43,367 nt of DNA from a virus (taxonomy: Duplodnaviria; Heunggongvirae; Uroviricota; Caudoviricetes), in the IMG/VR virus record IMGVR_UViG_2579778784_000007, positions 1-43,367 of that record. One strand, 5' to 3'. Below are positions 10,509 through 43,367 of the stretch, piece by piece. A program made the translations under genes and the position numbers. Below the pieces are notes generated by a model. The model ran no database searches. It saw only the letters and a list, made by a program, of their open reading frames with translations, and was not told where the DNA came from. The first letter of the stretch is position 1, and every line of letters starts with the position of its first letter.

Positions 10509-11168
10509 TCACCCAAACGTCTCTTCTGGCCACTGGCTGGCGATAACTTTCCCTACAACGGAACAGCTATCATTGCATGGGATCATTGGATATTGCGGGT
10601 TTAGTGGTTGTAGGAACACCTGACCGCTATCCCTGATCAGTTTCTTGAAGGTAAACTCGTCACCACCAAGTCTGGCTATGCAGAAATCACCTGGCTCAAC
10701 AGCCTGCTCAGGGTCAACGAGAATTAACATCCCGTCAGGAAAGCTTGGCTTGGATCCTGTTGGTGCGGTCATGGAATTACCTTCAACTTCAAGCCAGAAC
10801 GCACAATCACTAGCTTTTTTGGTTGTGCTGACCCATCTCTCCGCATCACCTTTGGTAAAGGTTCTAAGCTCAGGCGAGAACATCCCGGCCTGAACATGAG
10901 AAAAAACAGGGTACTCATATTGTTTTTTAACGGGGGCAGATGAGTATTCGCCAACAGGTGAAAATGTACCGTCGTGGTTGAATGAGACGTTATCAATACC
11001 AAGGTATTTAAACACCACACCAATCTCGTCAAGAGATGGATGACGAGATCCGCGCAACCAGTGACCAATTCCACCCTGCGTCATACCAAGCTCTTCAGCT
11101 AACTTCTCTTGAGTTATGCCGAGCTCTTTCATTCTGGATCTAGCCAGTTCATACCATTTCATTTTCAT
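10509..11168 (-). CDS. cI: cI repressor (hybrid: non-lambda N-terminal HTH domain + lambda-like C-terminal S24 autopeptidase/dimerisation domain)
   Basis: C-terminal ~130 aa ([39 protein letters not shown]...[12 protein letters not shown]...FTFKKLIRD...) nearly match lambda CI as I recall it; the N-terminal ~80 aa are a different HTH_XRE domain. ORF-track start at 11210 is TTG; first ATG is 11168, and a better-spaced ATG lies at 11162. Confidence 0.9.
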
Positions 11169-12138: not shown

Positions 12139-13032
12139 ATGGGGTATGTCTCTATACACCGCCAGTTTATGGACAGCAGGCTCTATAAGGACTCTCAGGC
12201 AGTACATCTTTGGCTTCACTTAATCCTCAAGGCTAATCACGAATCTACTGTCGTCAATACGGATATCGGTCCGATAACTGTTGATCGCGGTCAGATGATA
12301 ACTGGACGCCCGTCGCTGGTCAGAGAAACATTCATCCCCGACAACAAAGTTAGGAGCTTATTACGGACTTTTGAGTCGAAAGGGATGCTTAATATTTGCT
12401 CGATTGGGAAGAAATTTAGCCTGTTTACAATCGTTAAATATGACGATTTTCAGGCAAAAAATTGTCCAACGGTTGTCCAACGGTTGTCCAACGCAAACAC
12501 CAGTAATGGCGCGGCTCTCAGCGGAGATTGTCCAACGGTTGTCCAACGGTTGTCCAACGCAAACACCAGTAATGGCGCGGCTCTCAGCGGAGATTGTCCA
12601 ACGGTTGTCCAACGGTTGTCCATAAACAATAATATAAATAATATCTCTAATACTGACGTATTAGAGAGTGCCACAGCAGACAAAAAGTCTGACAAGAAAA
12701 AACCTTCCGTCAGCTGTCAGGATGTTGTCGATGCTTACCACGAAATCCTTCCTGAAGCGCCAAGAATCCGCGCACTGAATGACAAGCGTAAAAACCAGAT
12801 CCGAACGTTCTGGCGCAAAGCCGGAGTGATAACCCGCCAGCTTGACGGGCATGGGTTCACGATGCAGGACTGGAGAAATTATTTGAGCTACGTTGGCGAA
12901 AATTGCCGATGGATGTTCGAAGAGCGCCCAAACCATCAACGCGGAACCGTCTGGCACAAAAAGGGATTTGATTTCCTGCTTAACGACAATACCTACCTGA
13001 AAGTTCGTGAGGGTGAACACGATGACCGATAA
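12139..13032 (+). CDS. Replication initiator / replisome organiser (O-like, P22 gene 18 type) containing origin iterons
   Basis: Start chosen at ATG 12139 (AGGAGG SD, 8-nt spacing); N-terminal HTH-like domain, an iteron-encoded 22-aa tandem repeat, conserved C-terminal domain; immediately followed by a DnaB-like helicase. Confidence 0.72.
   Translation: MGYVSIHRQFMDSRLYKDSQAVHLWLHLILKANHESTVVNTDIGPITVDRGQMITGRPSLVRETFIPDNKVRSLLRTFESKGMLNICSIGKKFSLFTIVKYDDFQAKNCPTVVQRLSNANTSNGAALSGDCPTVVQRLSNANTSNGAALSGDCPTVVQRLSINNNINNISNTDVLESATADKKSDKKKPSVSCQDVVDAYHEILPEAPRIRALNDKRKNQIRTFWRKAGVITRQLDGHGFTMQDWRNYLSYVGENCRWMFEERPNHQRGTVWHKKGFDFLLNDNTYLKVREGEHDDR
12472..12625 (+). repeat. ori: Origin-like iteron array: 11-bp unit TTGTCCAACGG in a 66-bp higher-order tandem repeat, followed by an AT-rich stretch
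   Basis: Read directly: three 11-bp units + 33-bp spacer, repeated twice and partially a third time; adjacent AT-rich segment 12622..12670; embedded within the initiator gene as in lambda ori. Confidence 0.7.
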
Positions 13033-27938: not shown

Positions 27939-28380
27939 TCTCGTTCTTAAGGCTTTACGAAAAGCCGGGCTGTATTCCAATGCCACGTTGACAGATGCCG
28001 ACCCTCAGGCAATTGAAGATGCCATTAATGACCTCGAAGACATGATGGCAGCATGGCAGGCGAAAGGTATCGAGCTTGGATATCAGTTTGCGGATACAGA
28101 AAACGGCATCATGCCGTTACCTGACGATGATTCAGGTATCCCTGCATGGGCAAATGATGGCGTCGCTTTGAAGCTCGCTGTGCAAGTGTGCATGGATAAC
28201 GTCATTCAGCCGTCAGACGCTCTCCTTGCCGCTGCTGACAGTGCATATCAGACAATCTGCATCGCTTTAACCAAAATACCACCACTTGAGCGGCGAAATG
28301 ACATGCCTCGCGGTAGTGGTAACAAAAGCGCGTTTACGTGGAATCGGTTTTACATCGAGAAAGATGATCCGAGTACGTGA
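27919..28380 (+). CDS. Head-completion / tail-adaptor protein (P22 gp4-like)
   Basis: 153 aa; N-terminal KTKGDLVLKALRKAGL...TLTDADPQAIEDAINDLEDMMAAW resembles P22 gp4. Confidence 0.78.
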   Translation: MAKTKGDLVLKALRKAGLYSNATLTDADPQAIEDAINDLEDMMAAWQAKGIELGYQFADTENGIMPLPDDDSGIPAWANDGVALKLAVQVCMDNVIQPSDALLAAADSAYQTICIALTKIPPLERRNDMPRGSGNKSAFTWNRFYIEKDDPST

Positions 28381-35388: not shown

Positions 35389-35874
35389 TTATCTAATGTT
35401 GCTGCTACTGTTGCATGTGACGGTATTTCCAAATCCTGAATTGCAGTTTGTATAGGTGTCAACACGCGTTGGGTAAGGTTGAGTTATAACAGGCTGTCTC
35501 GCTTTTTGCTCGATCGCTTGCATTGTGTTTACAGCCTGATAATTCAATAAAGCCTGCTGGAATGCTTGGCTTTGTGCTATTTGTTGGGCTTGTTCTTGGC
35601 TTTGTAATTGAACATAAAGATTCTGAAGCTCAAGTCTTGCCTGTGCGTCACTTATCTTGCCTTCATCGACACCTTGCCCGAGCATCTTCGCAGCAAGGAC
35701 ATACAGCTTAGGTGTTGGTGCTGATGCCATGCGTGAGTCGTTCTTCACGCTGGCATCAAGGCAATTAGCCATATCACTAAGCTTTGGATAGCGTTGTTCG
35801 CAACTTGCCTGATAGTCGCTTACTTTTGCGCACCCAGCCAGCAGAAGCGGGATAATTAACAGTGATTTTTTCAT
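35389..35874 (-). CDS. Predicted lipoprotein (candidate superinfection-exclusion factor)
   Basis: 161 aa; signal peptide with lipobox LLAGC; AAGGAGAG SD; encoded antisense to the virion genes in the position of P22 sieA. Confidence 0.7.
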   Translation of the reverse strand: MKKSLLIIPLLLAGCAKVSDYQASCEQRYPKLSDMANCLDASVKNDSRMASAPTPKLYVLAAKMLGQGVDEGKISDAQARLELQNLYVQLQSQEQAQQIAQSQAFQQALLNYQAVNTMQAIEQKARQPVITQPYPTRVDTYTNCNSGFGNTVTCNSSSNIR

Positions 35875-35931
35875 ATAATTAACTCTCCTTAGTTTTGTGC
35901 ATGACGAAATTAACCAGCCATCAGGCTGGTA

Positions 35932-36114
35932 TTAGTCACATTCTATTTCTTTTGTCGACGTCCATACATAAGGGTCTGAGCAAACAACCTCTCCATTTAT
36001 CATGACGTCATAGCCCATTAGATATGAGTTACCACCAACAATCTGAGCGGCGATGACGCTAATGCTGGCGGCGCAGGCTGCACCAAAAACGAAACCAATT
36101 AATATATTTTTCAT
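35932..36114 (-). CDS. Small predicted membrane/secreted protein (60 aa)
   Basis: N-terminal hydrophobic segment [23 protein letters not shown]; immediately upstream of the lipoprotein gene on the same strand; weak SD. Confidence 0.45.
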
Positions 36115-36145
36115 TTTGATTCCAAATAGTTATAGGATGAAAGTT

Positions 36146-36331
36146 ATGACCATAGAAGAACGCCTGAACAACATTGAGTTGAATCAAACCCTGCTTGACC
36201 AGCGACTTTCAGATCTTGAGCTTAAAGATTTGGATGCGCAAATATTAGAAGCAGAGGCCAAGCTCTCCAGCTTAAACCACCGCAAGAAGCAAATCCGCAA
36301 CAGAATTACTCAGGGACGCGGAAGCTGTTGA
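36146..36331 (+). CDS. Hypothetical coiled-coil protein (61 aa)
   Basis: ATG 36146 with AGGA 8 nt upstream; overlaps by 26 bp the 3' end of the minus-strand ORF 36306..36515, so one of the two may be spurious. Confidence 0.3.
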   Translation: MTIEERLNNIELNQTLLDQRLSDLELKDLDAQILEAEAKLSSLNHRKKQIRNRITQGRGSC

Positions 36332-36515
36332 GGTGGGATGCTAGGTCTCTATCGTTAAAATCAAGGCTGCTAATCATTTCATTGTAAATAGCGTTTTTAT
36401 CTTCCATTGGCAGTCTTGAGTAAACCAGACACAGAGCATATTTCAGGGAGTTTAGCTCTTTCTCTAGCTCTTCCTTGCTTGATGTTTTTGACTTAATAAA
36501 CTGTTTTTTATTCAT
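36306..36515 (-). CDS. Hypothetical protein downstream of mnt
   Basis: 69-aa ORF coupled (ATGA-type) to the Mnt-like gene. Confidence 0.4.
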   Translation of the reverse strand: MNKKQFIKSKTSSKEELEKELNSLKYALCLVYSRLPMEDKNAIYNEMISSLDFNDRDLASHLNSFRVPE

Positions 36516-36748
36516 TTTGCATCCTTACCATACATGGTTTTCAGTGTTTCAATCAGCGCATCCCTGAATTTGTCAGCCTCTTTCTGAGCAAATTCATTGC
36601 TATTAAGCGATCTACCACAAACAGCATCTTCGATAATCTGTATTATTTCAGCATTCATGGAACGCTTGTTATGTTGCGCCCTGGCTTTAACCTTTGCCTT
36701 TAACTCTTTGGAAATCCTGATATTTATTTGCGGCTCTTCGCGTGACAT
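36512..36748 (-). CDS. mnt: Mnt-like ribbon-helix-helix repressor
   Basis: EPQINIRISKELKAKVKARAQHNKRSMNAEIIQIIEDAV parallels P22 Mnt DPHFNFRMPMEVREKLKFRAEANGRSMNSELLQIVQDAL; divergent from arc-ant. Confidence 0.75.
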   Translation of the reverse strand: MSREEPQINIRISKELKAKVKARAQHNKRSMNAEIIQIIEDAVCGRSLNSNEFAQKEADKFRDALIETLKTMYGKDAK

Positions 36749-36801
36749 ACCACCTCCATAGCATTTTGGTGATATTACTATTGCATCACTGCGATTACAA
36801 T

Positions 36802-36818
36802 GGTATAACGGTTATACC
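36802..36818. promoter_or_regulatory. 17-bp perfect palindromic operator between mnt and arc
   Basis: GGTATAACgGTTATACC in the 88-bp divergent intergenic region. Confidence 0.6.
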
Positions 36819-36836
36819 AAATTGATTGGAGGTAAT

Positions 36837-37010
36837 ATGATAGTCAAGTCAGACGCACCAAAGTACCCTTTGCGCATCCCATTAGAGGTTAAGTTAGCAA
36901 TCGAGAAGTCAGCGAAAGAAAATGGTCGCTCAATAAATACCGAGATGGTAATGCGGTTAGTGGATAGTTTAAGGCGGGATAGTTCTAAAGGTAATCTAGC
37001 AAAAAGTTGA
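36837..37010 (+). CDS. arc: Arc-like ribbon-helix-helix repressor
   Basis: 57 aa from ATG 36837 (GGAGG SD); PKYPLRIPLEVKLAIEKSAKENGRSINTEMVMRLV parallels P22 Arc PQFNLRWPREVLDLVRKVAEENGRSVNSEIYQRVM. Confidence 0.75.
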   Translation: MIVKSDAPKYPLRIPLEVKLAIEKSAKENGRSINTEMVMRLVDSLRRDSSKGNLAKS

Positions 37011-37072
37011 AGCCCCAACTGCGGTAACAGTCAGGGCTTCGTTATCAACAAATCGGCTTAGGAAATATTGAC

Positions 37073-37951
37073 ATGAAAAGTATAGCAAAGGCACAAAACG
37101 ATTTCACCATCTTCAAATTCGGCGACAGTGAAATCCGCGTCATCAACAAGTGCGGTGAGCCGTGGTTTGTAGCTAAAGATGTTTGTGATGCTTTAGCTTT
37201 GACTAACTCACGCAAGGCGCTTACTGCACTTGATGACGATGAAAAGGGAGTAACTTTAAGTTACACCCTTGGTGGTGAGCAGAATCTAAGCATTGTTAGC
37301 GAATCAGGTATGTATACATTGGTTCTGCGCTGCCGCGATGCTGTCAATAAAGGTTCGGTCCCGCACAAATTCCGCAAGTGGGTAACAGCAGAAGTTCTAC
37401 CTTCAATTCGCAAACATGGCGAGTATGTGAAAGGCAAGAAAACCACTGTTGAGGAAAGAACGCCGCTACGCGATGCAGTAAACATGCTGGTAGGAAAGAA
37501 AGGACTTCGCTATGACGATGCATACAATATGGTTCATCAGCGTTTTGGTATTGACAGCATTGATGAACTTTCAATTGAACAAATCCCGCTTGCCGTAGAG
37601 TACATCCACAGGGTAGTGCTTGAAGGTGAGTTCATTGGCAAACAAGAGAAGAAGACCAACGAGCTTTCTGCAAAAGAAGCAAACAGTCTTGTATGGTTAT
37701 GGGATTATGCCAACCGTTCACAGGCATTATTCCGCGAACTGTATCCGGCATTAAAACAAATTCAATCGAACTATTCCGGCAGATGCTACGACTACGGTCA
37801 TGAATTCTCGTATGTTATCGGAATGGCGAGAGACGTTTTAATAAACCACACACGAGATGTTGATATTAATGAGCCAGACGGACCAGCGAATCTTTCCGCA
37901 TGGATGAGACTTAAGAATAAAGAATTACCTCCTTCAGTACATAACTACTGA
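37073..37951 (+). CDS. ant: Antirepressor Ant (Bro-N domain)
   Basis: 292 aa; N-terminal Bro-N-like domain ([28 protein letters not shown]...); downstream of arc as in P22 immI. Confidence 0.82.
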
Positions 37952-37970
37952 CAGATAACCAACGCAACGA

Positions 37971-37993
37971 CCCAGCTTCGGCTGGGTTTTTTT
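37971..37993 (+). terminator. Intrinsic terminator after ant
   Basis: CCCAGC-ttcg-GCTGGG followed by TTTTTTT. Confidence 0.65.
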
Positions 37994-38061
37994 ATGCCCA
38001 AAATTCACCGTAGCCACGCTGCGGCGATTCCTTGTATCTGGAGCAAATTAAATGACAGACA

Positions 38062-38562
38062 TTACCTACTCAACAGATGGTCAGCAACCATGTTTGCTGC
38101 CTTATAAGCTATAGCCGCTTCATCAATGGTGTTGAATCTCCCAAGGGTTATGTTTTTACCTGAGACATTTATCTGAGCTTGCCATTGATTTCTGGCTTGA
38201 CAGAAAGTTACCCCCTTGATTCCAGCATTGCTATTTCGAGGTCCGACATTTAATGCATTTACGACTCTGCTGACATCCCTAAGGTTTGAGATTGCGTTAT
38301 TTCTTCTGTTTCTATCAATGTGGTCAATCTCTTGTTTGGGCCATTCGCCATATACATACAGCCAGGCAAGTCTATGTGCAAAATATCTTACGCCATCAAT
38401 ATTAATTGCGTTATATCCATAAGAAATTGTGCCAGCAACTTTCCCAACAGCACCTCTGGCGCTTAATTTCTTTTTCCAAGTGAAAATTCCTGTTTCTTTA
38501 TTGTAATCGAGAACCTCCATAAGGCGCTCCCGAGTTACTACCTCGTGACGTCTCTTACTCAT
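38062..38562 (-). CDS. HNH homing endonuclease with AP2-like domain (copy 2)
   Basis: 166 aa from ATG 38562 (GGAG SD; ORF-track start 38604); HNH motif [19 protein letters not shown]; [13 protein letters not shown] segment parallels copy 1; encoded antisense at the tailspike 5' end. Confidence 0.7.
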
Positions 38563-38575
38563 TATTTTCTCCGGA

Positions 38576-41059
38576 ATGTTTATTATGCCAGAACAATTAT
38601 ACAACGTAGTTGTTTCACAACCAAGTCAGTTATTTACTTTAGCTCGCTCGTTTAAAGCAAATGCCAATGGCAAAATTTATATCGGTAAAATTGACACTGA
38701 CCCGGTAAATCCAGAAAACCAGATTCAGGTTTATGTAGAGAACGAAGACGGCTCTCACGTTCCTGTTTCGCAACCAATCATCATTAACGCTGCCGGATAT
38801 CCGGTATATAACGGACAGATTGCCAAATTCGTTACCGTGCAAGGCCATTCTATGGCTGTTTATGATGCGTATGGTGCGCAGCAGTTTTATTTTCCCAATG
38901 TGCTGAAGTATGACCCCGATCAGCTACGGCAGCAATTAGAAGATCCAGATGGCGCTAAAAAATATCCTGAGTTGCAGATAGCACGATGGAGAGATTGTGG
39001 AGATGTTAGAGGTTGGGGAGCAAAAATAGATGGGGTAACAGATGATTCAGATGCTTTTATTAAAGCTTTAAACTCTGGAAGGTCGGTTATAACAATTCCT
39101 GAAGGAATATGCATCATCAAGAAGAATATTAACATTCCTGAAGGGTGTTCACTGGTTGGATCTGGCATTGATTATTGGGATACATATAGACCAGCGCCTG
39201 AAAGATTATTAAAAAGTTGGAGTAAAGGAACCCATCTTGTATTTACTGGTGATGGAGAAAAAAACAAATATTTTTTTAACATCTCTAATGAAAGACCGGT
39301 TAAAATTGTTGAAGGGATATCTTGTAAGTTCACTGAGTTTACGAATGAAGATTCTGTAGGTGTTACTCCTGCTACACCAAAAGCCATGAGCGTAGCTGTT
39401 AGTATCAACAGGGCATCACAGTTACGCAATCTGAGAATAATGGTAAGTAAAAATGGTATTGAAGGATACAATAACCCTGATTCTTATTCATTGGGTGATA
39501 ACTGGGATATAGGGTTGCATGTATACGATAGCTGTGATTCAGTTATTGATAACGTACAGATTGTCGGCTATTGGAGGGTAAAAGGACTACTACTGACAGA
39601 AAATGACGGGAGCCTTTCAATGAAGGGAAATCCTGAAAAAACGCACTTTAATAACGTTTATGTACAGTCAGGAATCGCGATAAGGAATAGCCCTCAGATT
39701 GATCTTGTAAGTAATACTGAAAGCTCAGTGACATTTAAACATAAAAAGTCGATGAGAATAACTTCAGTTAAACAGTTTAAAATTGCTGGCAGTGAATCAG
39801 TATATACGTATTCAGATGCATCATTTGATGGAACTAATATCACACTATCTGGTATTTCTCCTGAAATACAAGGTTCAATAAGTGTAATCAGGTTTCCGTC
39901 AATTGGTAATAATTTTAGTGGGACTGTTTTTGAGAATACAGTAGCCACTACTCTTGATCATACATCAGGTAAGCCATCAGAATACTTTGGCCTTCCTGCA
40001 TCCTTTGCATTAGAGATTGATGGTTTCCCTGTTCGTAATTTAAGGCTTGATAAATTCAAAGCTCAAACTACCTTTGATAAAGGAAATTGCATTTTTGGTG
40101 ATTGCCGTGATGTTAAAATCACATCATCTGAGTTTGAAAATGGAATTATGATTGCGTATAACCTGACCGAGACTCAGGGTTATACAGGAAATCTTAGATT
40201 TTTTGCTTCTGATCTTCAGAGCAGCGTTAACACAAGCGAGTTTAAACCAAGAGACGCATTTGTAGACAATAGACAAATAAAAACGGAGTTTACTGATGGT
40301 TCTTTCATTATAAAGAACTGGAGGCCTACAGATACAAAAATACAATGGTCGTCTGGAGTGGATGCTATTGTTCTTAGAGAGTCACCTGACGAACAATCAA
40401 ACGGAAATATTTACGGGTATCACATTGATGGTAAAAGATGGATTAATGTTAGTGGATATAACAAAGATATAAATATTTCATCAAGAAACTTAAGCGTAAA
40501 AAACCATAGTGATGACTCCGCAGTTATTAATATATTCGGCGACTCTGGAAATATTGCCATTAAAGGTAATTTTTCACCAATTGTTGATAACAGCAAATCT
40601 CTTGGTGCACCATCATTTAGATGGGCTCAGATTTATTCTGCATCTGGGACTATAAGCACATCAGATGAAACACTTAAAACAATATATGACATTACTCAGG
40701 CAGAGCGTGATGCTGCGCTGGAAATAAAGGGAATTATATGCAAGTTCAGGTTTAATGAGTCGATTAATTTTAAAGGATTGGAGTTATCAAGGTATCATTT
40801 TGGAGTTGGCGCTCAAACCGTAGGGGATATTCTTAGAAAGCATGGTTTAAACCCTGAGCAATATGCTTTTTGGTGTTACGATGAATGGCCAGACGTATGG
40901 GATGAAGAGGTGATAACTGAAGAGAGCACAGATCCTGATACAGGTGAGAAAATTTATTCTCAATATAAAACAGGAAATATGATTCTTGTAAAAAAAGCAG
41001 GTGGACGCTACGGAATTCGTTATGACGAATTGGCTATGTTTATATTAATGGCAATGTAG
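38576..41059 (+). CDS. Tailspike: P22 gp9-like N-terminal head-binding domain, divergent central receptor-binding domain, C-terminal intramolecular chaperone (S74-like) domain
   Basis: N-terminus [53 protein letters not shown]...[12 protein letters not shown]...VLKYDPDQ aligns with P22 gp9 residues ~7..120; C-terminal ~130 aa resemble the auto-cleaving chaperone domain of endosialidase/K5 lyase/T5 fibre, with an S-x4-K dyad at SDETLK (Ser codon 40661..40663). Confidence 0.88.
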
Positions 41060-41546: not shown

Positions 41547-41561
41547 GCTTTTTTATACTAA
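41547..41561. other. attR: attR core (O)
   Basis: GCTTTTTTATACTAA followed by bacterial B' arm CTTGAGCGAAACGGGAAGG; identical core to attL. Confidence 0.92.
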
Positions 41562-42236: not shown

Positions 42237-43367
42237 ATGAAACGCGCATATAAATACCGGTTTTACCCGACAACTGAGCAGGCTGAGCTTTTAGCTCAGA
42301 CGTTTGGCTGTGTGCGCTTCGTCTACAATTCCATCCTTCGTTGGCGTACCGATGCGTACTACGAGCGAAAAGAAAAGATCGGTTATCTACAGGCCAACGC
42401 TCGCCTTACGGCGCTCAAAAAAGAGCCTGAATACATATGGCTGAATGATGTTTCCTGCGTTCCCCTCCAGCAGTCGTTGCGCCACCAACAAGCCGCCTTT
42501 GCTAACTTCTTTGCTGGACGAGTTGCATATCCGGCTTTCAAAAGCAAACGGCACAAACAGGTGGCTGAGTTCACTGCCAGCGCGTTTAAACACCGTGACG
42601 GCGAGTTGTATATAGCAAAGAGCAAGTCGCCGCTGGATGTTCGCTGGAGTCGAGAATTACCATCTGCGCCGTCAACCGTTACCATTTCCAGAGATAGCGC
42701 TGGCAGGTACTTTGTTTCCTGCCTGTGTGAGTTTGAACCTGTATCAATGCCTGTTACCGCTAAAACGGTCGGCATTGATGTGGGCTTAAAAGATTTATTC
42801 GTCACCGATACCGGATTCAAAACCGACAATCCCCGCCACACCGCTAAATATGCGAAGCGATTAACGCTGCTACAGCGACGTTTAAGCAGGAAGCAAAAAG
42901 GCTCAAGAAACCGTATTAAAGCCCGCTTAAAGGTCGCCCGACTCCACGCGAAAATCGCCGATTGCCGGATGGACAATCTGCACAAGTTGTCCCGCAAACT
43001 GATTAACGAAAACCAAGTTGTTTGCGTCGAATCCCTCAAGGTGAAAAACATGATCCGCAACCCGAAGCTGTCTAAAGCAATAGCTGACGCAGGCTGGAGC
43101 GAACTTGTTCGCCAGCTCCAGTACAAAGGCAAATGGGCCGGGCGGTCAGTGGTCGCCATTGACCAGTATTTACCGTCCTCAAAATGCTGTAGTTGCTGCG
43201 GTTTCACCATGCAAAAAATGCCTCTTAATGTTCGTAAATGGCACTGCCCTGAATGCGGCGCAGACCATGATCGCGACATTAACGCGGCACGTAATATTAA
43301 AGCTGCCGGGCTGGCAGTGTTAGCCCACGGAGAGCCTGTAAACCCTGAATCGCAGCACGCGGCTTAG
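42237..43367 (+). CDS. tnpB: TnpB (IS200/IS605-family RuvC-like, RNA-guided nuclease type)
   Basis: 376 aa ending at the window edge with TAG; RuvC-like motifs (GIDVGLKDL; VCVESLKVKNM; HDRDINAARNI) and zinc finger CCSCC...HCPECG; no tnpA in window. Confidence 0.85.
   Translation: MKRAYKYRFYPTTEQAELLAQTFGCVRFVYNSILRWRTDAYYERKEKIGYLQANARLTALKKEPEYIWLNDVSCVPLQQSLRHQQAAFANFFAGRVAYPAFKSKRHKQVAEFTASAFKHRDGELYIAKSKSPLDVRWSRELPSAPSTVTISRDSAGRYFVSCLCEFEPVSMPVTAKTVGIDVGLKDLFVTDTGFKTDNPRHTAKYAKRLTLLQRRLSRKQKGSRNRIKARLKVARLHAKIADCRMDNLHKLSRKLINENQVVCVESLKVKNMIRNPKLSKAIADAGWSELVRQLQYKGKWAGRSVVAIDQYLPSSKCCSCCGFTMQKMPLNVRKWHCPECGADHDRDINAARNIKAAGLAVLAHGEPVNPESQHAA

Follow-up and report, generated by a model that had tools for sequence, protein, structure and literature searches.

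A divergent, complete P22 immI-type module in a lambda-integrating prophage

The prophage sequence analysed here (IMG/VR record IMGVR_UViG_2579778784_000007, 43,367 nucleotides; 'the window') carries mnt, a dyad operator, arc, sar and ant, all intact, in the gene order and orientation of the immI regions of phages P22 and Emek (ORF map and synteny). On comparative grounds we consider it likely that this module is a functional homologue of P22 immI (an 'ant moron') with its own operator specificity, housed in a mosaic P22-like (Lederbergvirus-type) prophage that uses the integrase and attachment site of lambda. The system is well known, the P22 immI circuit having been textbook material since the 1970s–80s; the window holds a divergent member of it, complete but otherwise ordinary. 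The roles of Mnt, Arc, sar and Ant in P22 have been described (PMC11016777; PMC2629481), and sequenced, annotated copies of the window's immI allele already exist in many Escherichia coli genomes and in phage Kapi1. A first-pass annotation of this DNA had proposed a complete mnt/operator/arc/ant module of the P22 immI type, a proposal upheld by homology, synteny and operator covariation, with every feature found at the position it had been given. Its inventory of genes and dyad was correct as far as it went, but it overlooked the antisense RNA sar, the sar promoter and the terminators.

Genomic setting

The mnt gene is divergent from the arc-ant operon (ORF map of the window), and synteny with P22, Emek and Kapi1 places the module in a P22-like late operon, with a gene-16-like injection protein gene on one side and the tailspike gene on the other, just as immI of P22 lies between gene 16 and the tailspike gene 9. 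The structural region is 93–97% identical to P22-like phages. The other end of the mosaic is lambda-like: the prophage is inserted at attλ of E. coli, its Int is 99% identical to lambda Int, the 15-bp att core GCTTTTTTATACTAA is duplicated at the prophage ends (1331–1345 and 41547–41561), and the flanking genes are ybhC and ybhB, all of which bears out the earlier description of a lambda-integrating prophage.

Similar 'ant morons' in epsilon34, Emek, ST64T, HK620, CUS-3 and other phages are highly mosaic late-operon cassettes in which mnt, arc and ant may be present, absent or decayed (PMC2629481). Against this background the window cassette is one more combination, with the full set including sar. 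Emek, by contrast, has a KilA-N Ant and an extra gene, orf73, between arc and ant.

Two ribbon-helix-helix repressors

The mnt gene (36512..36748, minus strand) encodes a 78-aa Mnt-type ribbon-helix-helix maintenance repressor, identified by Pfam (Arc family PF03869, E = 5.7e-13), by alignment with P22 Mnt and by its best PDB match, 1MNT (E = 8e-9, aligned over residues 3–72). Its 35% identity to P22 Mnt runs over the whole length (residues 1–75), C-terminal extension included. In the Mnt family this helical extension makes the tetramer, whereas Arc is without it; here it aligns with the P22 tetramerization region to residue 75 of 78, with the motif ETLK..Y.K common to both, and the protein would by this likeness form tetramers as well. 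The residues of the recognition beta-strand in P22 Mnt are Arg2, His6, Asn8 and Arg10 (Sauer-laboratory literature). Aligned with the P22 strand A-R-D-D-P-H-F-N-F-R, the window strand S-R-E-E-P-Q-I-N-I-R keeps Arg2, Asn8 and Arg10, while His6 is replaced by Gln.

The arc gene (36837..37010, plus strand), the first of the ant operon, encodes a 57-aa Arc-type ribbon-helix-helix repressor (PF03869, E = 2e-12) that is 40% identical to P22 Arc, and several E. coli genomes have a 57-aa Arc-family protein (WP_001549438.1) in this place according to their RefSeq annotation. The first-pass identification of one Mnt-like and one Arc-like repressor is thus borne out for both proteins. The recognition strand is K-Y-P-L-R as against Q-F-N-L-R in P22. 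P22 Arc contacts DNA through Gln9, Asn11 and Arg13; the equivalent residues are Lys, Pro and Arg in the window and Lys, Asn and Arg in relatives. The proline at the Asn11 position weighs against our preferred reading, but the changed contact residues would point to a different specificity and not against the fold.

NCBIfam gave nothing informative on the three proteins Mnt, Arc and Ant. PHROG labels the families of Mnt and Arc 'partition protein ATPase', which we set aside as a mislabel of ribbon-helix-helix proteins.

The dyad between mnt and arc

Within the 88-bp divergent mnt/arc spacer lies the perfect 17-bp palindrome noticed at first pass, GGTATAAC-G-GTTATACC (36802..36818), which reaches 19 bp as the dyad TGGTATAAC-G-GTTATACCA (36801..36819; O_mnt). 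When the window was simulated with a first-order Markov model, 35% of the simulations held a perfect palindrome with arms of at least 9, and rarity was dropped as evidence. Since its length is statistically unremarkable, the significance of the dyad is taken from its position in the spacer, from its uniqueness (it is the sole match in the window even with three mismatches allowed) and from its covariation with Mnt.

The window dyad aligns column for column with a P22 dyad, AGGTCCAC-G-GTGGACCT, that has the same odd-centred 17-bp layout and is equally far from the mnt ATG; we take this P22 dyad to be O_mnt, separate from the 21-bp P22 Arc operator. The half-sites differ (GGTATAAC in the window, AGGTCCAC in P22), so that a different immI specificity is expected.

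Covariation was followed in 80 related loci together with the window, P22 and Emek. Across these 80 loci the dyad keeps its place, and it varies with the N-terminal recognition strand of Mnt, not with the Arc strand. Among the loci in which a dyad was found, nearly all have a perfect odd-centred one that begins 51–66 nt from the mnt ATG, the exception being loci of the RDISPLGIR type (26–49 nt). The Mnt strand ARDDPHFNFR pairs with GGTCCAC-N-GTGGACC (26 perfect, 29 with one mismatch allowed), SRDDPQFKLR with GAACCAC-G-GTGGTTC (11), and SREEPQINIR with GTATAAC-N-GTTATAC (13 perfect and 15 with one mismatch allowed, the window included). On the Arc side, a single strand, PQFNLRWP, was found with three different dyads, and the dyad of the window with three different Arc strands. 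Because the dyad tracks the Mnt recognition strand and not that of Arc, the alignments argue that it is the Mnt operator, and neither an Arc operator nor a shared one.

An Arc operator, an operator shared by both repressors, an RNA hairpin or a mere chance palindrome might be imagined at this site, given that in 43 kb a chance palindrome this long is no rarity and that two ribbon-helix-helix repressor genes flank it. We find such readings scarcely credible in the face of the covariation with Mnt, of the alignment with a P22 dyad distinct from the Arc operator site, and of a position relative to mnt that is conserved across types; as for a hairpin, there is no T-run after the dyad and no terminator call there.

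Candidate promoters and the region of the Arc operator

Promoter candidates on either side of the Mnt operator were read by eye and from conservation. The candidate P_mnt (36772..36800, minus strand) would have its -35 hexamer TTGTAA at 36800..36795, 1 nt from the 17-bp dyad, followed by a 17-nt spacer and a -10 hexamer TAATAT at 36777..36772. The P22 sequence can be read with a like layout (TTGAGA-N17-TATCAT, again 1 nt from its dyad), and every immI type keeps the TTG beside the dyad. The candidate P_ant (36781..36809, plus strand) would comprise a -35 TTGCAT (36781–36786), a 17-nt spacer and a -10 TATAAC (36804–36809) with TG before it. This candidate -10 falls within the left half of O_mnt, so placed that the operator would overlap the arc-ant promoter, whereas in P22 the P_ant -10 is upstream of the operator. 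TGnTATAAC within O_mnt would read as an extended -10 on both strands. All sequences examined from the window-type sub-family keep the combination TTGCAy-N17-TATAAC but differ in the spacer itself. An automatic promoter scan of 36100–38100 called neither P_ant nor P_mnt; the latter scores 8/12, under the threshold of the scanner, and the -10 of the former is without the conserved final T, which weighs against our reading.

The candidate Arc operator region (36768..36789) occupies the place of O_arc in P22, between dyad and mnt. It holds GTGAT-N11-ATCAC and the conserved block GGTGATATTACTATTGCA, and is conserved among phages with the same Arc. Within the window-type sub-family, neither dyad symmetry nor covariation with the Arc strand led to a convincing Arc operator site.

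sar and the terminators

The antisense RNA sar (37005..37071, minus strand), directed against the arc-ant spacer and the ant ribosome-binding site, was recognized by Rfam over its full length (RF00262, positions 1–68; 70.1 bits against a gathering score of 43, E = 1e-12). At its 3' end a hairpin and T-run (37040..37009) reach into the arc stop codon, and a terminator-like site was called for it on the minus strand. The sole call of the promoter scan was a sigma-70-like P_sar (37079..37107, minus strand; GTGAAA-N17-TATACT with TG upstream) within the first codons of ant. Transcription from it is predicted to start just where Rfam places the 5' end of sar, and the -10 hexamer of this promoter (AGTATA on the plus strand) is conserved across most Ant alleles. 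Downstream of ant an intrinsic terminator (37969..37996, plus strand) consists of a stem at 37969–37988 and a T-run; Emek has an annotated terminator in the equivalent position.

Relative to P22, sar and the arc-ant spacer are about 90% identical at the DNA level and the C-terminal half of Ant is 85% identical; Mnt and Arc are only 35–40% identical and differ in their recognition strands (His6 to Gln in Mnt; Gln9/Asn11 to Lys/Pro in Arc).

Ant, its domains and its target

The ant gene (37073..37951, plus strand) encodes a 292-aa antirepressor, identified by Pfam, by PHROG (phrog_245 'anti-repressor Ant', E = 6e-112) and by alignment with P22 Ant. As announced by the first-pass annotation, a Bro-N domain is present (residues 20–110; PF02498, E = 7e-20); it is followed by a conserved middle region and P22_AR_C (residues 192–264; PF10548, E = 7e-30). 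Residues 122–292 are 85% identical to P22 Ant 130–300. The N-terminal domains differ: the Pfam search found Bro-N and no P22_AR_N at the N-terminus of the window Ant, whereas P22 Ant and the Ant of E. coli A28 carry P22_AR_N (PF10547). Both KilA-N and P22_AR_N alleles of Ant are found behind the same mnt/arc genes, and the Bro-N allele is found with at least three Mnt types. A search for solved structures of Ant found none.

The repressor of the prophage, cI (10509..11165, minus strand), has a divergent N-domain and a C-domain (residues about 85–218) about 99% identical to that of lambda cI. The lambda-like C-domain reported at first pass is confirmed, but the hybrid is not an unusual one: the same allele occurs with 100% identity in phages phi458, Dewey, 683R2 and 720R6, and at 97% identity in many Stx phages. 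Nor does this hybrid leave the target of the antirepressor as unclear as had been suggested, since P22 Ant is reported to act on lambda-type repressors and the same Ant occurs in Kapi1 beside a cI only 37% identical to that of the window. According to PMC3121763 and PMC3064807, both of which cite Susskind & Botstein 1975, P22 Ant inactivates the repressors of P22 (C2), L, lambda and 21. We presume that cI is the main target of Ant in this prophage.

A different view would be that Ant is not aimed at the resident cI, and that Bro-N retargets it to repressors of other prophages or satellites, to DNA or to a host factor, immI then being a trans-acting weapon or a crosstalk module between elements. 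Such a view would lead one to expect what is seen, one and the same C-half joined to three unrelated N-domains (Bro-N, KilA-N, P22_AR_N) downstream of the same mnt and arc genes, and the occurrence of the Bro-N allele with varied Mnt types and with the divergent cI of Kapi1 implies that the module is not matched to the resident repressor; P22 Ant has itself been speculated to couple the induction of co-resident prophages (PMC3121763). Moreover, if the N-domain carries repressor binding, the target range of P22 Ant would not be transferable to the window Ant, which weighs against our preferred reading. However, the lack of a match to the resident repressor is equally expected of a broad-specificity antirepressor, and the C-half is 85% identical to that of an Ant with documented activity on lambda-type repressors. 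The Ants of Stx phages (Phi24B, 933W, VT2-Sa) have in common with the window Ant the P22_AR_C C-terminal part; the Phi24B prophage depends on its own Ant to be induced efficiently, although only this part of the protein is common with P22 Ant (PMC3064807). We therefore regard a retargeted Ant as unlikely, and it is likewise doubtful that the interchangeable N-domains are target-selection modules on a constant C-half, with Bro-N acting on partners other than the resident cI. Our preference remains with Ant directed at cI, with the qualification that P22 Ant is dispensable in P22 for induction and for the lytic and lysogenic pathways (PMC3121763), which leaves the biological role of the module in doubt even there.

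Kapi1 and the integrity of the module

A close relative is the model phage Kapi1 (vB_EcoP_Kapi1, MT813197; PMC8787464, PMC12922286), with 98% DNA identity over 35900–38100. Its Mnt is 97% and its Ant 99.7% identical to those of the window, its Arc is identical over 53 residues, and both phages carry the orf60, orf61, orf69 and HNH neighbours. In contrast to the window prophage, Kapi1 integrates at argW. It also lacks 65 bp corresponding to window positions 36783–36847, that is, the dyad, the promoters and the start of arc, a region intact in the window. The deletion of this control region coincides with a published RNA-seq observation that mnt mRNA is undetectable in Kapi1 lysogens, an absence of expression that it probably explains. 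Deletion and RNA-seq report together give the sole, indirect support for the expectation that Mnt would be required to hold ant silent in the lysogen and that Ant would inactivate the prophage repressor.

One may ask whether the module of the window is itself an inert relic, in view of the crippling deletion in Kapi1 and of the decayed ant morons that are common in P22-like phages (PMC2629481). Two features of the window could be cited to this effect: at 36796, adjoining the dyad, it alone has T where its relatives have C, and its Arc has the proline at a DNA-contact position described above. But the proline-containing Arc is the commonest allele in its group, and the mnt, arc and ant ORFs, in which frameshifts had been named as the sign of decay, were checked and found full length and free of them. 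Nor is there damage to the dyad, which is perfect, or to sar, P_sar and the terminators, and Ant is nearly identical to that of a viable phage. When measured against relatives whose dS is not saturated, mnt and arc have dN/dS values of about 0.06–0.10 (arc, 0.08), which indicates strong purifying selection. An inert module thus appears to us very improbable, and we continue with the reading of a functional one.

Small ORFs beside mnt

The flank of mnt is occupied by orf69, orf61 and small secreted/lipoprotein ORFs in the window, and by orf59 and sieA in P22. The two small ORFs of unknown function noted at first pass both exist and belong to conserved phage families. The ATG of orf69 (36306..36515, minus strand; phrog_16466, E = 5e-51) overlaps the mnt stop codon (ATGA), and the gene is probably co-transcribed with mnt in the lysogen; it is annotated in Kapi1, Emek and E. 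coli genomes, while strain UTME-12 has a ClpP-like gene in its place. The second, orf61 (36146..36331, plus strand; phrog_7586), is a small coiled-coil ORF convergent with orf69, with a 26-bp overlap. Some annotations give a 92-aa version from 36053, called XhlA-like, of which phrog_7586 covers only the 61-aa part; Pfam lends no support to XhlA at E < 0.1 and returned only a weak, sub-threshold match to DUF3847 (E = 0.032).

Proposed working of the module

Reasoning by homology to P22, we propose the following circuit. In the lysogen, Mnt would be made from the leftward promoter whose -35 abuts the dyad, and would bind, probably as a tetramer, to the 17–19-bp dyad at 36801–36819. Bound Mnt would lie over the -10 and the start site of the rightward arc-ant promoter, keeping Ant from being made and leaving cI active. 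In a genome entering a cell without the matching Mnt, the arc-ant promoter would fire. Arc would then shut this promoter, limiting Ant to a burst, and sar, transcribed from the promoter inside the first ant codons, would pair with the ant ribosome-binding site and lower Ant translation. Ant itself may bind repressors of the cI/C2 type non-covalently and block their operator binding, acting on the resident cI and probably also on the repressors of other lambdoid prophages.

Gifsy GfoA/GfhA, N15 AntC and 186 Tum are LexA-controlled, work without an Mnt/Arc/sar circuit and provide an induction route for uncleavable repressors. As repressor-binding inactivators they fill the same logical role as Ant (PMC3121763), but we set them apart, by their description, as unrelated small proteins.

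Significance

The window provides an intact reference copy of the Kapi1-type immI region, and thereby exposes the 65-bp deletion in a model phage. For the study of how ribbon-helix-helix proteins recognize DNA, the natural series of Mnt recognition strands and matching dyads is a ready data set. With three N-domains exchanged on one C-half, Ant poses the question of which half binds repressors. Should the doubtful view of the N-domains as target-selection modules prove true, immI cassettes would be anti-immunity weapons shuffled behind a constant sar/terminator joint, and the partners of the Bro-N Ant might be, for example, the repressors of co-resident prophages or satellites. The pairs of Mnt strand and operator (His6/Asn8 with GGTCCAC, Gln6/Lys8 with GAACCAC, and Gln6/Asn8 plus Ile7/Ile9 with GTATAAC) would then be a natural specificity code that keeps the cassettes blind to each other.

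An intact immI cassette with divergent alleles

The first-pass annotation described a P22 immI-type layout of mnt, operator, arc and ant, and both the ORF map and homology to P22 proteins agree with it: three intact genes occupy 36512-37951 in P22 immI order. The first, mnt (36512..36748, minus strand), encodes a 78-aa ribbon-helix-helix protein (Pfam Arc, E = 5.7e-13) that shares 35% identity with P22 Mnt over residues 1-75, including the C-terminal extension that Arc lacks, and whose top solved relative is 1MNT. The arc gene (36837..37010, plus strand) encodes a 57-aa Arc-family protein with 40% identity to P22 Arc; in several E. coli genomes, RefSeq annotation places such a protein at the equivalent position. 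Finally, ant (37073..37951, plus strand) encodes a 292-aa antirepressor (phrog_245, 'anti-repressor Ant') with P22_AR_C at residues 192-264 and the Bro-N that had been proposed, here placed at residues 20-110. Frameshift decay, raised earlier as a possible objection, is not seen, as all three ORFs are full length. The Ant protein differs by one residue from Ant of Kapi1, a viable phage, and dN/dS for mnt and arc is ~0.06-0.10 against relatives with 60-88% protein identity, where dS is unsaturated. At a coverage of at least 80%, the full module was detected in 21 of 5426 complete E. coli genomes. For the module as a whole, those defining immI features open to testing were all found, whereas the window Ant differs from P22 Ant in its N-domain.

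Where P22 Arc has the DNA-contacting Asn11, the window Arc has Pro (strand KYPLR); in related cassettes the strand reads KYNMR or KYNLR. Of the three DNA-contact residues, two differ from those of P22 Arc. Pro is unusual in a recognition beta-strand, but this allele is more frequent than any other in its group and is thus presumably functional.

The prophage and its neighbouring genes

That the prophage sits at the lambda site, as first annotated, is clear from its Int (99% identical to lambda Int), the lambda att core at 1331-1345 and its repeat at 41547-41561, which bound the prophage, and its position between ybhC and ybhB. It combines a lambdoid mosaic early region with P22-like structural genes, which share 93-97% identity with Kapi1, 720R6 and CUS-3. 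Comparison with lambda cI likewise upheld the hybrid nature of cI (10509..11165, minus strand), which joins a divergent N-domain to a C-domain nearly identical to that of lambda. This allele is no rarity: phi458, Dewey, 683R2 and 720R6 carry the very same cI (100% identity), and in many Stx phages cI matches it at 97%. Tandem repeats at 12361-12695 in a replication O-like gene, encoding the repeated peptide CPTVVQRLSNANTSNGAALSGD, are probably origin iterons of a lambdoid replication module. Adjoining ybhB, where we would expect bioA from the E. coli K-12 map, is a gene for an IS200/IS605-family TnpB, an RNA-guided endonuclease (42237-43367, plus strand).

Closer to the cassette, between it and the injection-protein gene, the mnt strand (minus) encodes a 161-aa protein whose lipoprotein-type signal reads LLAGC (35389-35874) and a 60-aa secreted peptide (35932-36114). 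Both are of PHROGs with no assigned function, occupy the site of sieA in P22, and may be exclusion or conversion genes expressed in the lysogen. On the other side, an HNH_3 + AP2 endonuclease gene (38062-38604, minus strand) separates the ant terminator from the tailspike gene and resembles an inserted homing endonuclease; Kapi1 also has it, but E. coli strain 124 does not, and there tailspike comes directly after ant. In E. coli UTME-12, where the cassette is a fragment between IS3 copies, the place of orf69 (36306..36515, minus strand, in the window) right after mnt is taken by a ClpP-like protease subunit gene (1966-2502 of that locus).

The dyad as Mnt operator

The 88 bp mnt/arc spacer contains a dyad, TGGTATAAC-G-GTTATACCA (36801-36819), first annotated as a perfect 17-bp palindrome; it is indeed perfect, but its true length is 19 bp. 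We rejected this length as evidence against chance, since 35% of windows simulated with a first-order Markov model contain a palindrome whose arms reach 9 or more. Just one further perfect palindrome in the window has arms of 8 or more: AACGGCAT-C-ATGCCGTT (8+1+8, 28102-28118), which lies among the structural genes.

Position and covariation are more telling. In the window/P22 alignment, the dyad coincides exactly with AGGTCCAC-G-GTGGACCT, which we take to be the Mnt operator of P22. Among 80 IMG/VR loci encoding Mnt relatives, most have a perfect odd-centred dyad in the spacer upstream of mnt, starting 51-66 nt from the mnt ATG in nearly all dyad-bearing loci, but 26-49 nt away in RDISPLGIR-type loci. 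Across these 80 loci plus the window, P22 and Emek, the Mnt recognition strand ARDDPHFNFR goes with GGTCCAC-N-GTGGACC (26 perfect, 29 with one mismatch allowed), SRDDPQFKLR with GAACCAC-G-GTGGTTC (11) and SREEPQINIR with GTATAAC-N-GTTATAC (13 perfect, 15 with one mismatch allowed, including the window), while ARNDPQFNVR of Emek is paired with GTAGTAC-G-GTACTAT. The dyad does not track Arc: PQFNLRWP, an Arc strand, accompanies three distinct dyads, and loci sharing the window's dyad have three Arc strands among them (KYPLR, KYNMR and KYNLR). Because the dyad varies with the Mnt strand and not with the Arc strand, we infer that 36801-36819 is the Mnt operator. For an Arc operator, no comparable signal in dyad symmetry or covariation was found within the window-type sub-family; the conserved block 36768-36789 is a candidate by position.

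Promoters, sar and the Kapi1 deletion

Every immI type has a TTG on the mnt strand, 1 nt away from the 17-bp dyad. In the window this gives a candidate mnt promoter read from the sequence (TTGTAA-N17-TAATAT, 36800..36772, minus strand), the same layout that we read in P22 (TTGAGA-N17-TATCAT). Rightward, TTGCAy-N17-TATAAC is kept in the window-type sub-family while the spacer sequence diverges, suggesting a candidate arc-ant promoter whose -10, extended by TG, falls within the left operator half. Both candidates fall below the promoter scanner threshold. Mnt bound to the dyad would directly block arc-ant transcription while adjoining the -35 of its own promoter. Right beside the dyad, the window has T at 36796 where 16/16 aligned relatives have C (TACAAT vs CACAAT), which gives a better -10-like hexamer on the plus strand and changes the candidate mnt -35 from TTGTGA to TTGTAA.

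The first-pass list of module parts stands for mnt, operator, arc and ant, but falls short of a fourth regulatory element, the sar antisense RNA, matched by Rfam at full length (37005-37071, minus strand; 70.1 bits, gathering score 43). Its promoter (GTGAAA-N17-TATACT, 37107..37079, minus strand) is the sole sigma-70-like site called by the scanner in the region, and the transcription start implied by its position is the Rfam 5' end of sar. Terminators are called for sar (a 3' hairpin and T-run, 37040..37009, minus strand) and ant (37969-37988, plus strand). The sar hairpin, GAAGCCCCAACTGCGGnAACAGTCAGGGCTTC (37009-37040), has the same sequence in ~40 of the loci L001-L086, although these carry several different arc and ant alleles, and has the look of the recombination joint of the cassette. 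Codons 3-5 of ant (AGTATAGCA, encoding S-I-A, within 37073-37090) hold the sar promoter -10 on the opposite strand, which is why otherwise unrelated Ant N-domains all begin M-x-S-I-A.

Kapi1 lacks 65 bp, window 36783-36847. The gap is seen in its virion record (MT813197), in its prophage copy on the E. coli MP1 chromosome and also at IMG/VR locus L017; the stretch is intact in every other close relative of the window examined. Missing with it are the dyad, the candidate mnt -35, the candidate arc-ant promoter, and the arc ribosome-binding site and ATG. The deletion is a simple and likely candidate explanation for the failure of RNA-seq to detect mnt (Kapi1_063) in Kapi1, which surprised the authors (PMC12922286). 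Kapi1 lysogeny is also unstable (PMC8787464), but to connect this with the deletion is speculative, since the arc-ant promoter goes missing as well.

Ant target and place of the cassette

The lambda-like C-domain of cI had led the first reading to call the Ant target unclear. The puzzle is a weak one: passages citing Susskind & Botstein 1975 state that, besides its own C2, P22 Ant inactivates the phage L repressor and those of coliphages lambda and 21 (PMC3121763), and likewise that it is active on lambda cI (PMC3064807), so a lambda-type C-domain is no obstacle. The same Ant allele occurs in Kapi1 alongside a cI only 37% identical, and the Bro-N allele is found with at least three Mnt types; the cassette is portable and not tailored to the resident repressor. 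Behind the same mnt/arc genes, one C-half carries Bro-N (window), KilA-N (strain SWYH, Emek) or P22_AR_N (strain A28, P22). With the N-domains swapped in this way, either half may be the one that binds repressors; the material examined yielded no statement on this and no solved structure of Ant.

The P22 circuit of mnt, arc, sar and ant has been described (PMC11016777, PMC2629481), and by homology at each functional step the window module would be this circuit with a different Mnt/operator specificity. Cassettes of this type have been described in P22-like phages under the name 'ant moron' and are highly variable (PMC2629481); that of the window is a divergent, uncharacterised allele of this long-known system.
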